NCBI GenBank assembly: GCA_000438415.1
Contig: FR902233.1
Span: forward strand, 2,366 to 66,365
Direction of reading: 5' to 3'
Origin: Clostridium sp. CAG:628
GTDB taxonomy: Bacteria > Bacillota_I > Bacilli_A > RF39 > UBA660
Length of the DNA: 64,000 nt
The notes below the pieces were generated by a model, which saw only the letters and a list, made by a program, of their open reading frames with translations, had not been told where the DNA came from and ran no database searches. Each line of letters starts with the position of its first letter. Position 1 is the first letter of the stretch. Below are positions 22,571 through 31,854 of this stretch, piece after piece. The translations under genes and the position numbers were made by a program.

Positions 22571-24502
22571 CTATCTTATCTTATAATTATTTATCACACT
22601 CAAATTCTCTTTTAAAATATTCCACATTCTATCACTTAATTCTTTCTTCCAATTATCTTCTTTTAAATTAACAAAAGGTCTAAAACTAATTTGATAAAAA
22701 GGTGTAATCCATAAAGAAAAATCTTGTTTAAAAATTTGACTAAATTCTACATTTCTTAAAACACTAAAAATAAATTTATCAAATAAGACTTTATCATTAA
22801 GAATATAAGCCTTATTTAAATCAGTAAATTTAACACAACCTATAGACCCATTAATAACCTCTATATCTTTAACACTTGTTGGTAAAACTAGATCTCTAAT
22901 AAACCTTTTAGTATCATTATTAATAACAATTTTTTTAAGTTTATCACTATTAGAAAAATCATAACATATTCTATTTGTATTAAATATAGTATTTTCACTC
23001 ATTCCTATATAAACATATTCTACATCTTTTCCAAAATAAATAGTATTTTCTCTAAAATCACTAAAAACTTCATTTAATAATATATTCGCATCAAAATTAA
23101 ATTCATCAAAATCTGCTACTTTAAACCCATCATAGAACTTATTTCTAAAAGGAAGAACATAATTCATTTCCTTATTTAACATATTAAAAACCTTATAAAT
23201 ATTAAAATAATAACCATATTCTTTTTGTAACTCTTCTAAATTATTTCCTAATTTATACTTATGATCAAACATTCTAAGAATTGTTAATAAAGAAACATCA
23301 CTAGCAAAATAATTTGAGTAACCATATTTTTTACATATACTACTATTACTATAAGGTTCTAAATAATTATAAACACTACTAGTAGGTACTTTAAAATATT
23401 CTAACATTTTATAAAACCAATTCTTATAATCATCTTTTTCTCCATTAAATAACAAACTTAATTTAAATGAGTCCTTTAAAATACTATTCACTTCTCTATC
23501 ATAAAAAATAATATTCTTAATATCTCTACTTATATTCTTTTCACTAATATATTTATAAATAATATTCTCTAAATAATCATGTTCATACACACTATTATAT
23601 TTAATTACATAATCACTTATAGGTTTTTCCCTAAACTTAATTTCATAATATTTAAACTTTCTATCAATTAAATCATTTAATAAATCATCAACGCAAGTAG
23701 TACTAAACTCCTTTAAAAATATACACTTTTTAATACCTTCATCAATACTCTCTATATTCCCAATTTTAAGACTTTTAATATCATTAATAACATCATGACT
23801 ACTTAAATAATTTTCTAACATAACTTCCATATAAACAATATTACTAATACCTAATTCTTTAATATTTTCATTATCTATACCAAATAGATATAAATAACTC
23901 TTAAGTTTATTAAATTTATTTCTTATCATTTCATCTTCATTACTAACCAAAGTAATATTAGAAATACTAATTAAATCTAAATAACTACTAACCTCCAAAT
24001 TAATAGCTTTCATATTACTATTTATAATAATTAACTCATTTTTTATACTATTAATCTTTCTATAAATAGCATCTCTTTTATTAACATTAATAATGTTTCT
24101 TCTACTAACTATATCTAAAGCCTTCCACCTAATAAATAAATCTTCTTTATAATTATTTAATAAAACAACATAATACTTTAATTTACTTAGTATAATTTCT
24201 AAATCAACATTATTCCTCTTATCACTATTATTTACCAAATTCATAATATAATCTAATTCAATAATAGTTTTAGTAATACTATTAATATAATTATTAATAG
24301 TAACTTCACCTTGAAAGTCCACACTTGTTAAATACCTATCACTCTTTAATAACTCTTTATAATAACTAATATACTTTTTAATCTCTTTATCTTTTGAAAC
24401 ATAAAACTTCTTTTCAGGCATATCAATTAAATCATCTAAATTAATTAAAGAATTACTATTTATATTAACTTTCTTTTTAAAAATATTTTTAAACCAACCC
24501 AT
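22571..24502 (-). CDS. hypothetical 643-aa protein (terminal gene of the putative RiPP cluster)
   Basis: No recognisable motif. It is preceded by the conserved 28-bp palindromic promoter element also found before the LPLAT-like gene. Confidence 0.4.
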   Translation of the reverse strand: MGWFKNIFKKKVNINSNSLINLDDLIDMPEKKFYVSKDKEIKKYISYYKELLKSDRYLTSVDFQGEVTINNYINSITKTIIELDYIMNLVNNSDKRNNVDLEIILSKLKYYVVLLNNYKEDLFIRWKALDIVSRRNIINVNKRDAIYRKINSIKNELIIINSNMKAINLEVSSYLDLISISNITLVSNEDEMIRNKFNKLKSYLYLFGIDNENIKELGISNIVYMEVMLENYLSSHDVINDIKSLKIGNIESIDEGIKKCIFLKEFSTTCVDDLLNDLIDRKFKYYEIKFREKPISDYVIKYNSVYEHDYLENIIYKYISEKNISRDIKNIIFYDREVNSILKDSFKLSLLFNGEKDDYKNWFYKMLEYFKVPTSSVYNYLEPYSNSSICKKYGYSNYFASDVSLLTILRMFDHKYKLGNNLEELQKEYGYYFNIYKVFNMLNKEMNYVLPFRNKFYDGFKVADFDEFNFDANILLNEVFSDFRENTIYFGKDVEYVYIGMSENTIFNTNRICYDFSNSDKLKKIVINNDTKRFIRDLVLPTSVKDIEVINGSIGCVKFTDLNKAYILNDKVLFDKFIFSVLRNVEFSQIFKQDFSLWITPFYQISFRPFVNLKEDNWKKELSDRMWNILKENLSVINNYKIR

Positions 24503-24518
24503 ATAATCCCCTCATATA

Positions 24519-24560
24519 AAAAAGTGTACTTATTATAGCACACTTTTCTAAATATTTCAA
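24519..24560 (-). promoter_or_regulatory. promoter with palindromic operator: TTGAAA-17-TGcTATAAT embedded in AAAGTGTgCT-ATAATA-AGtACACTTT (copy 1)
   Basis: The 28-mer AAAAAGTGTACTTATTATAGCACACTTT is identical to 27881-27908. In minus orientation the hairpin loop contains an extended -10. Confidence 0.5.
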
Positions 24561-24924
24561 ATTAATAGTTATAATTAAATTTTCTTAACAATTAGAATCA
24601 ATCTTTTAAATTTCCTATAGAAACAACATAAAATCCATCATCTCTTTTATAAGAATAAGTTGTCCCTGTAAATAGCATTAAAATTAAAGCTCACCACACT
24701 TTTCAATATCTATGCGTTTTGTAGATTTTAAAAGGTTTTTTGCTGCTTCATCAATATATGCAGAACCTAATTTAATTTCAACATCACCCATTATTTCCAT
24801 CAATTATCCCAATTCATTTTCAATTAATCTTGGTAAATATTTCATACTTTATTCTTTATTCAAAAAAAATATTAAACCATTTTTTATATAAAAAAAATTT
24901 ACATTTTGAGAAAAAAAGAAAGCC

Positions 24925-30642: not shown

Positions 30643-30683
30643 ATAATCTACCTCCTACCAACTGAAGTCAAATCACTTCTTGA

Positions 30684-30747
30684 AAAATATTATAGCACAC
30701 ATAACTTACTATGTAAATAGTAAGTTATTCATAGTTAGTAAGTTACG
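30684..30747 (-). promoter_or_regulatory. promoter (TTACAT-16-TGcTATAAT) overlapped by three AACTTACTA half-sites (perfect 10-4-10 palindrome 30703-30726 plus direct repeat 30736-30745)
   Basis: AACTTACTAT-GTAA-ATAGTAAGTT is centred on the -35, and TAGTAAGTTA recurs 19 bp away. The -10 shares the GTGTGCTATAAT core with the two downstream palindromic promoters. Confidence 0.4.
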
Positions 30748-30774
30748 ACAAAGAGCAAAGAAAAAACTAGTATA

Positions 30775-31854
30775 CTACTTAGTACCTAGTTTGATCTTTA
30801 AAGTCTCATTTTTACCATTTCTAATAACAGTCATTTCTATAGTTTCATCTATTTCATAACTATAAAGTCTATATCTAAATTCAGCTATATCTTTAACAGT
30901 ATCATTACCAACTTTAATAATAACATCTTCACTCTTTAATCCAGCCTTAGCCGCAGGACTATTTTTTTCAACATCAACCACTACTACACCACTATCAATA
31001 TCTTTATCAAGTCTAATACCTGCATAAGCAAGTTGCATTGTACTAGTTGCGTTTAACATACTTACACCTATATAAGGTCTACTAATTTTACCATTTTCTC
31101 TTATATTTTTTGCATAAGTTACTGCATCTTCAATAGGAATAGCAAAACCAATACCTTCAATAGTACTCTCTACTATCTTCATACTATTAATACCTATTAC
31201 TTCTCCATTAGCATTACATAATGGTCCACCACTATTACCAGGATTAATCGCAGCATCAGTTTGCATAACATTCATAATCCAGTCAGCACTAGAACCATTT
31301 ATACTTACACTAACGAGTCTATCTTTACCACTTAAAATACCTCTAGTAACAGTACCCTTAAAATTTATTCCCATAGGACTTCCCATAGTAAACACAGTAT
31401 CTCCTACTTTAGCATCTTCACTCTTTCCTAAAGATGCTACACTCTTAATAGTACCCTTATCAACCTTTAAAACAGCAATATCAGCATATTCGTCACTACC
31501 AACTATTTTAGCAGTAGTTTCACTATCATCATTATAGGTTATCTTAATAGTTTCCCCACTTTCAATAACATGATGATTAGTCATAATATATCCATTATCA
31601 TCATCAGTATCATAAACAAACCCAGTACCAGTTCCTATAAGTTCTCCCTTACTATATGTTTGTATTACAACTACAGAACCCTCAATCTTATTAACAGCCT
31701 CACTTATACCATTATCTGTAATAGTAACATTCTTCTCTTGTATAGTTTTAACAACATTACTATTAGGAAAATATTTAACAACTCCTACAATAACAAGTGC
31801 ACCAACTAAAATCCCAATTAACAAAGTAATTAAATAACTAATTTTTTGTCTCAT
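30775..31854 (-). CDS. htrA: HtrA/DegP-family serine protease with PDZ domain, membrane-anchored
   Basis: N-terminal TM helix, a trypsin-like catalytic triad context (HH..D..GNSGGPL) and a C-terminal PDZ-like region. Confidence 0.85.
   Translation of the reverse strand: MRQKISYLITLLIGILVGALVIVGVVKYFPNSNVVKTIQEKNVTITDNGISEAVNKIEGSVVVIQTYSKGELIGTGTGFVYDTDDDNGYIMTNHHVIESGETIKITYNDDSETTAKIVGSDEYADIAVLKVDKGTIKSVASLGKSEDAKVGDTVFTMGSPMGINFKGTVTRGILSGKDRLVSVSINGSSADWIMNVMQTDAAINPGNSGGPLCNANGEVIGINSMKIVESTIEGIGFAIPIEDAVTYAKNIRENGKISRPYIGVSMLNATSTMQLAYAGIRLDKDIDSGVVVVDVEKNSPAAKAGLKSEDVIIKVGNDTVKDIAEFRYRLYSYEIDETIEMTVIRNGKNETLKIKLGTK

Follow-up and report, generated by a model that had tools for sequence, protein, structure and literature searches.

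A three-gene cassette on the minus strand of a 64,000-nt stretch of DNA from Clostridium sp. CAG:628, an uncultured bacterium of the human gut (contig FR902233.1; the whole stretch is called the window here, and coordinates are positions in it unless a locus is named) encodes a 21-residue peptide, an E1-like adenylating enzyme that most resembles MccB, and an ATPase of the ABC-F family. The window is AT-rich, with a G+C content of ~25%. As judged by comparison with related loci, which are denoted by L numbers, the conserved unit consists of these three genes only, and we read it as the cassette of a new ThiF-like (MccB-type) family of peptides that are made on the ribosome and modified after translation (RiPPs), a reading to which, when it is taken together with the mechanism proposed below, we give about an even chance. 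The pairing of the peptide with the enzyme is well supported and we hold it with confidence; a specific functional link of the ABC-F protein to the cassette is likely, with a good deal less assurance. The core finding is real and, as a family, new: no paper in the searchable literature mentions the CHVDQxC motif in which the peptide ends, or MccB/ThiF together with an ABC-F protein, so that the view of an earlier note on this DNA, namely that the combination is undescribed, still holds. That note had placed the genes in an operon of six; the six co-oriented open reading frames (ORFs) that it listed are all present on the minus strand at the positions it gave, and its operon is weighed further below.

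A conserved peptide gene with an invariant CHVDQxC tail

The gene for the precursor peptide (MKINVKKVTVAKFSCHVDQHC; 30577–30642, minus strand) is conserved upstream of the E1 gene and has, as the earlier note had seen, a strong ribosome-binding site (RBS) of its own, GGAGG, 7 nt upstream of the 21-codon ORF. Genome loci were fetched through homology to the E1-like enzyme alone, and in all 24 of these E1-anchored loci that have upstream sequence an ORF for 20–21 residues, with an RBS, lies 45–75 nt upstream of the enzyme gene and encodes a peptide ending in KF(A/S/E)CHVDQ(N/H)C. The same peptide precedes the enzyme in four more loci that were fetched from protein matches. The short ORF is thus a conserved peptide gene. 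Metagenomes were also scanned with the back-translated motif, which brought back the main family; loci found in this way were preselected by the motif, and its invariance is taken from the E1-anchored sets alone. Across 42 distinct peptide genes the codons for C, H, V, D and C of the tail differ only synonymously, and the CHVDQxC tail is therefore under strong purifying selection. The C-terminal residue is Cys in 42 of 42 and position −2 is N, H or R, while positions 2–12 vary with a basic and hydrophobic pattern retained, which makes the variable N-terminal half a putative leader and the invariant CHVDQxC a putative core. A subset of the relatives have a frameshifted peptide gene or an E1 match split over two frames; these loci, such as L079 (7831–7900, where the peptide reads CHVDPKL...), L024, L116, L137 and L148, are decaying cassettes or assembly errors.

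The predicted promoter of the peptide gene (30689–30745, minus strand) consists of a −35 box TTTACA, a 17-nt spacer and a TG-extended −10 box TATAAT, and is the best promoter-like site of the minus strand, with 11 of 12 matches and the TG. Overlapping its −35 box, TAACTTACTA occurs three times at 30701–30745, twice as direct copies 18 nt apart and once inverted. These repeats may be an operator; L001, a relative at 96% identity, retains them, and L002 and L104 do not. No gene for a DNA-binding regulator adjoins the promoter.

A stem-loop (30555–30573, minus strand) separates the peptide gene from the E1 gene; it starts 6 nt past the peptide stop codon, and of 200 shuffled sequences 2 fold as well as it does (z = −2.6). 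The hairpin that the earlier note placed here was found in every locus examined, 24 of 24, with a different sequence each time; in 9 of the 10 loci tested against shuffled sequence its z lies between −2.6 and −5.1. It is conserved as a structure, not as a sequence. The peptide–E1 hairpin did not pass a strict terminator scan of the window, and we read it as a partial terminator or a transcript stabiliser.

A predicted MccB-type adenylating enzyme

The E1-like protein (29509–30531, minus strand, 340 aa) matches the Pfam model PF00899 (ThiF), which the earlier note had proposed as a check, over residues 103–332 (E = 1e-43). A profile built from 20 homologues finds MccB first (1.3e-50, over residues 58–340), followed by MoeB (1e-28), PaaA (2e-26) and ThiF (2e-24), and phmmer with the window's protein against MccB gives 1.7e-35. 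In the AlphaFold model (predicted local distance difference test score, pLDDT, 84) four strands and then three helices, in residues 1–95, precede a Rossmann domain; residues 1–100 are predicted to form an N-terminal peptide clamp resembling a RiPP recognition element (RRE), and residues 103–332 an adenylation domain with a CxxC...CxxC zinc site. In Foldseek the alignment to MccB extends over the entire chain (template modelling (TM) score 0.66–0.70, ~350 columns including the N-terminal domain); PaaA comes next, and ThiF and MoeB rank behind these two and cover the catalytic domain only. Profile, model and structure search agree, as the earlier note had it, on an E1 of the MccB/PaaA type with an N-terminal peptide-binding domain.

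All 20 homologues retain the glycine-rich loop, N158, R161, Q162, K174, D214 and the four cysteines of both CxxC pairs. Because these ATP/Mg and zinc residues are invariant and the fold is MccB-like over its full length, we predict an adenylating enzyme of the MccB type that is active, has a peptide clamp and keeps its nucleotide-binding residues intact, and not a docking scaffold or an activator of a sulfur carrier. A role as ThiF, MoeB or TcdA, the first two of which the earlier note had allowed for, was rejected on NCBIfam scores of 101, 88 and 39 bits against cut-offs of 275, 266 and 304 and on the domain architecture, with MccB the closer relative. Sulfur-carrier activation was set aside as well, since the N-terminal clamp and the adjacent, conserved, Cys-ending peptide argue against service to a ThiS/MoaD-type partner.

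There are ~110 homologues at 41–99% identity, all of 340–350 aa and all from uncultured gut Bacilli or "Tenericutes", and beyond them similarity drops sharply. Among library clusters formed at 50% identity, the close family takes up a handful, inside a superfamily of 724 clusters at E ≤ 1e-30.

The ABC-F ATPase and its association with the peptide and the enzyme

The third gene (27924–29519, minus strand) encodes a 531-aa ABC-F ATPase in which a linker of ~100 aa connects two ABC_tran domains and a membrane domain is lacking. The ABC-F ATG, at 29519, falls inside the E1 reading frame, and the two genes share 11 nt. The earlier note had argued for translational coupling from a 5-nt gap between the two genes; no such gap exists, and the overlap supports the coupling more strongly than the gap would have done. 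In 41 of 43 loci the first ATG of the ABC-F gene is no further downstream than the E1 stop codon, and the ABC-F gene stands directly 3' of the E1 gene in all 27 assessable genome loci, so that the co-occurrence of E1 homologues with both a short ORF and an ABC-F gene, which the earlier note had put forward for checking, is borne out on both sides of the enzyme. Identity to the window's proteins declines together for E1 and ABC-F (96/95, 78/82, 55/56 and 41/38%), and a main-clade E1 on a well-assembled contig is always accompanied by an ABC-F gene. The one seeming exception, L141, was discarded: it is a 2.5-kb low-coverage contig, and on three long contigs the identical E1 is followed by ABC-F.

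The best NCBIfam model for the ABC-F protein is the ribosomal-protection-like family (NF000355), for which it scores 359.6 bits and does not pass the cut-off of 380; a homologue that is 56% identical carries a ribosomal-protection name in the NCBI annotation. Its solved relatives are all ribosome-bound, with YbiT first and VmlR/ExpZ, Uup and EttA among the others. The tip of the interdomain linker reads DNDK (approximately residues 275–278; 28686–28697), and this tetrad is invariant in 43 of 43 cassette-type ABC-F proteins although overall identity drops to 38%. Resistance ABC-F proteins reach the peptidyl-transferase centre with this tip of the linker. The best 120 matches of the ABC-F homologue search are all at least 56% identical, a range within which the boundary of the subfamily is not reached.

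The peptide and the ABC-F protein are tied to the enzyme in different ways. In the motif scan, CHVDQxC peptides also precede E1s that are only 29–35% identical to the window's and have other neighbours: an M50-like membrane protein and an alpha/beta-hydrolase in L083 and L092; in L153 oligoendopeptidase F and a major facilitator superfamily (MFS) transporter upstream and a membrane-protein ORF downstream, the last partial and read as the membrane domain of an exporter, with no Pfam match. One such peptide–E1 pair is carried on a plasmid-like contig with a relaxase gene (L127), and another copy is interrupted by an insertion sequence (L154). Conversely, loci that have ABC-F and no E1 have no peptide either. 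Since the peptide is found with E1 clades that have no ABC-F and is absent from ABC-F loci that have no E1, it belongs with E1 and not with ABC-F.

This bears on a regulatory reading of the short ORF, as a leader peptide whose hairpin controls the ABC-F gene by attenuation, with the E1 a ThiF/MoeB or TcdA-type enzyme acting on some other substrate. The leaders of vga, msr and vmlR are attenuators of resistance ABC-F genes, and the succession of leader ORF, hairpin and ABC-F gene, with the window's hairpin so close behind the stop codon, resembles that layout. We nonetheless consider attenuation very improbable and rejected it, because the peptide goes with E1 and not with ABC-F, in presence as in absence; in addition, the distance from stop codon to hairpin varies from ~5 to 23 nt across loci, and the E1 has an MccB-type clamp and scores far below the ThiF, MoeB and TcdA cut-offs.

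Four ABC-F orthologues were checked on long contigs, and two of them (L085 and L086, both ~61% identical to the window's ABC-F) stand without E1. The ABC-F DNA of L085 is 99.3% identical to that of L007, and L085 retains 57 nt from the 3' end of E1; between L086 and L095 the identity is 98.9% and begins exactly at the ABC-F start codon. Near-identical strains thus differ in having or lacking the peptide and E1, with ABC-F kept in both, and because ABC-F persists in this way its tie to the peptide is one-directional. Such retention of ABC-F without the cassette is what one would expect of producers and immune-only strains.

In about one third of the loci a divergently transcribed gene for a 210-aa protein accompanies the cassette, immediately upstream of it, and the block of this gene, peptide, E1 and ABC-F has different flanking genes in L079 and L155. 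The gene is found at L079:7082–7714 (minus strand), in L081 and L155 and in ~20 other loci, and has no copy in the window. Its family, with 38 clusters, occurs in this clade only, has no sequence match in Pfam, NCBIfam or the PDB, and contains conserved Cys-rich motifs including CDxDQIxCH. The structural model (pLDDT 96) has a predicted class-I methyltransferase fold, for which Foldseek ranks a putative rRNA methyltransferase first, with weak similarity (TM ~0.5). The protein could be a second, rRNA-directed resistance gene product or a tailoring enzyme.

Several observations weigh against our reading of the cassette. The ABC-F protein falls under the ribosomal-protection cut-off, its closest solved relative is the housekeeping protein YbiT, and its persistence without the cassette means that it may be a resident translation factor. 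The main-clade cassette has no adjoining exporter or leader peptidase: none was found in the window or in main-clade loci, the only candidates being those of the divergent clades, and the flanks hold housekeeping genes that differ between genomes (gatCAB, priA, def and fmt in L081; formate–tetrahydrofolate ligase in L079; ribosome recycling factor in L088). Finally, a near-invariant core across lineages whose enzymes are ~40% identical is unusual for an antibiotic and fits a signal or a cofactor-like molecule better. Most of these points are what one would expect if the peptide and E1 form a true RiPP module while the ABC-F protein is a resident translation factor of Bacilli that is merely co-transcribed, the product being a signal, such as a thiolactone like the autoinducing peptides (AIPs), or a molecule with a target other than the ribosome. 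The stand-alone orthologues in L085 and L086, the divergent CHVDQxC modules without ABC-F and the presence of a hybrid kinase nearby in some loci also speak for it. We regard this explanation as rather unlikely: the E1/ABC-F overlap is kept over a wide divergence, the block that includes ABC-F lies between different flanks in L079 and L155, no main-clade E1 on a well-assembled contig lacks ABC-F, an unrelated ThiF–peptide cluster in Bacillus atrophaeus also has an ABC-F gene, and the kinase is missing from most loci.

The B. atrophaeus cluster (strain NRRL NRS 213, L051:5626–10925) is separate from the CHVDQxC family and comprises co-oriented genes for a peptide (MKIEELDLDTETANLVQRC), a ThiF-like enzyme (25% identical), a protein with a solute-binding (SBP_bac_5) domain, an MFS transporter and, at its end, an ABC-F protein (33% identical), located just after walJ and htrC; its peptide has no match in the searchable literature. 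Distant E1s in Legionella/Coxiellaceae (25–30% identical) are each preceded by a conserved ORF of 19–21 aa that ends in VSLAGSA(V/M)PY (L030:5780–5839, L032:5763–5828 and L036:5680–5745), which may be a further undescribed type of ThiF-RiPP precursor.

An E1 beside an ABC ATPase could also suggest an anti-phage defence module built on a Cap2-like E1. In PADLOC the E1 domain weakly matches CBASS E1–E2 models (up to 59 bits) and the ABC-F protein weakly matches mad3 (147 bits), and an AbiD gene lies 1.3 kb upstream of the cassette. The matches, however, span generic Rossmann and ABC folds only, which is why this reading was rejected; E2 domain, cyclase and effector are all missing, a defence role would not account for the conserved peptide or for the MccB-like clamp, and AbiD is absent from most related loci. 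Defence therefore strikes us as extremely improbable.

Proposed mechanism and significance

In the mechanism that we propose, the peptide would be made in excess from its strong promoter, with the hairpin limiting read-through into the enzyme genes. The N-terminal clamp of the E1 would bind the peptide's N-terminal half, which varies but is basic and hydrophobic, and the enzyme would use ATP to adenylate a carboxylate in the CHVDQxC tail. By analogy this would most likely be the α-carboxylate of Cys21, since the enzyme's closest relative is MccB and the peptide ends in an invariant residue. An intramolecular nucleophile would then capture the activated acyl group, and the simplest product would be a thiolactone, with a mass change of −18 Da, formed either from Cys15 to the C-terminus as an AIP-like seven-residue ring or, as the main alternative, from Asp18 to Cys21 as in GrcB. 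The ABC-F protein, translated in step with E1, would bind the producer's ribosome and either protect it, as antibiotic-resistance (ARE) ABC-F proteins do, or sense the product. The most specific version of this proposal, in which the modified CHVDQxC peptide is a ribosome-targeting RiPP of novel chemistry and the coupled ABC-F a dedicated target-protection immunity protein, is a tentative one that we place somewhat below an even chance.

The class of ThiF-like RiPP enzymes is young and growing quickly, and up to now every novel precursor motif within it has led to new chemistry. The CHVDQxC family would add a tiny, invariant, Cys/His-rich core that is widespread in never-cultured gut bacteria, and it is the first ThiF-like RiPP family to be seen tied to an ABC-F protein of the ribosome-binding kind. 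If the ABC-F protein does provide immunity, the product would be a new inhibitor of translation, originating in the human microbiome, and the ABC-F protein a natural reservoir of a target-protection mechanism; among RiPP pathways this would then be the first with ABC-F protection, found in uncultured Bacilli of the human and animal gut, with both producers and immunity-only strains. If it does not, the cassette would still offer an easily expressed three-gene system for a new peptide modification.

Transcription units and neighbouring genes

Downstream of the cassette, on the same strand, follow the remaining three genes of the earlier note: an acyltransferase (ORF 26740–27864, or 26740–27907 with its promoter and a 26-nt element; PF01553), a hybrid histidine kinase (ORF 24925–26682, or 24916–26682 with its terminator; HisKA, HATPase_c and Response_reg domains) and a 643-aa protein (ORF 22571–24502, or 22571–24560 with its promoter and the 26-nt element) that matches no family in Pfam, NCBIfam or PADLOC. 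The element, AAGTGTGCTATAATAAGTACACTTTT, occurs in exactly two copies (24520–24545 and 27882–27907; 0 expected by chance), which sit upstream of the 643-aa gene and of the acyltransferase gene. It has the form of an imperfect 9-bp inverted repeat (AAAGTGTGC...GTACACTTT) around the −10 box of the two promoters. It looks like a shared operator of these two genes. Its core, TGTGCTATAAT, recurs upstream of the peptide gene, where it forms the −10 region of the promoter. In a promoter scan the best TG-extended matches on the minus strand are the sites of the peptide, acyltransferase and 643-aa genes, and a terminator scan found an intrinsic terminator at 24916–24942, 3' of the kinase gene. Because of these separate promoters and the terminator, the anatomy of the window suggests three transcription units, not a single operon.

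The earlier note's full model, in which all six genes form one operon or regulon for an acylated or otherwise tailored peptide under the control of the kinase, draws on their common orientation, on the 26-nt element and its core before the peptide gene, and on three loci (L002, L005 and L104) in which an acyltransferase and a kinase also follow ABC-F. Its point that identical promoter–operator elements are present stands, as an exact repeat; its conclusion that they tie the genes into one regulon does not, as the relatives vary and the genes have promoters of their own. The acyltransferase and the kinase are both missing from most related loci, the latter being near the cassette in only ~6 relatives. 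In the 96%-identical relative L001 an AMP-binding enzyme replaces the acyltransferase, and the kinase has a different sensor/membrane domain. The only other contigs found to carry the 643-aa gene, L111 and L140, belong to the window's species. In the window the acyltransferase gene adjoins genes for a diacylglycerol kinase and a phosphatidylserine decarboxylase, and this neighbourhood suggests that the acyltransferase serves lipid metabolism. Taken together with the separate promoters and the terminator, these observations leave little probability for the six-gene model, and the acyltransferase, the kinase and the 643-aa gene are, on the distribution of their homologues, unrelated neighbours outside the conserved unit.

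Other features of the window were noted in passing. The spacer between the kinase terminator and the 643-aa gene (24503–24924) is unusually long, at 420 nt, and contains a 39-codon ORF (24684–24803); it may be the remnant of a lost gene or the insertion junction of the species-specific 643-aa gene. The Abi_2/AbiD abortive-infection gene (31867–32799, minus strand; PADLOC AbiD, 2.8e-57) lies between the genes for ribosomal proteins S9/L13 and that for an HtrA-like protease. Two overlapping ORFs on the minus strand, at 59741–61489 and 61479–63704, encode proteins of 582 and 741 aa that have no match in Pfam or PADLOC.

Comparison with known systems

Known ThiF-like RiPP enzymes adenylate a peptide carboxylate, which an internal nucleophile then captures (PMC12596934, PMC12250964). 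MccB acts on a C-terminal Asn to give a phosphoramidate, PaaA on Glu side chains, and GrcB joins Glu35 to the C-terminal Cys39 in a thiolactone; EnfB converts a 21-aa precursor into a macrocyclic imide, and IndF cyclises the C-terminus to an indolylamide (PMC12596934, PMC12250964). Thiols can also trap C-termini that MccB has activated (PMC13255007). Of the features of RiPPs made by such ThiF-like adenylyltransferases (TLATs), the cassette has an E1 domain with intact nucleotide-binding residues, a predicted fused N-terminal clamp and a conserved adjacent precursor gene; an exporter and/or leader peptidase, which is usual and not universal in these clusters, is lacking in the main clade. CHVDQxC is not among the published motif types (WWIII, NWYFI, VEGR, NICxxxK, CxxxC and GxxQY).

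The nearest system by enzyme is microcin C. MccB is the closest solved relative of the E1 by sequence and by fold, with clamp, adenylation domain and zinc site in common, and in both systems the enzyme gene is immediately preceded by a very short gene for the precursor, with a hairpin separating the two. Unlike the microcin C precursor, however, that of the cassette ends in Cys and not in the Asn that is needed for the succinimide and the N–P bond, and the cassette has no genes of the MccC, MccD, MccE or MccF type, carrying ABC-F in place of an MFS exporter with acetyltransferase/peptidase immunity. Membership in the microcin C family was rejected because the C-terminal Asn is missing.

In the GRC system of Streptococcus (GrcA/GrcB), an RRE-fused ThiF-like enzyme likewise acts on a peptide with an acidic residue shortly before a C-terminal Cys, and ATP-dependent loss of water yields a thiolactone (PMC12596934, PMC12250964). 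GrcB was compared by its description only. D18 and C21 are invariant in the 42 distinct peptide genes, but the spacing differs, D-x-x-C in the cassette against E-x-x-x-C in GRC, and the CHVDQxC tail has a second invariant Cys and a His. The cassette is also without the quorum-sensing operon, the exporter and the radical S-adenosylmethionine partners of GRC, no gene of the last kind being adjacent. EnfA/EnfB and IndA/IndF are, like the present system, minimal cassettes with short precursors (21 residues in EnfA); their ThiF-like enzymes activate the C-terminal carboxylate for macrocyclisation (PMC12596934, PMC11256085), as is proposed for the present one. They differ in their cores, WWIII and NWYFI, and their clusters contain several transporters or an M16 peptidase; none has an ABC-F gene.

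For the ABC-F protein the comparison is with the ARE ABC-F proteins (Vga, Lsa, Msr and VmlR, and OleB, CarA and LmrC). Antibiotic producers carry the ARE ABC-F genes oleB, carA and lmrC beside their biosynthetic genes; to our knowledge no RiPP cluster has ABC-F immunity, and a search found none in the searchable literature. The cassette ABC-F differs from the ARE proteins in lying just under the family cut-off and in that no antibiotic is known here. It resembles them in its two ABC domains, its long linker and the absence of a membrane domain, and the NCBIfam model that fits it best is that of the ribosomal-protection-like family.

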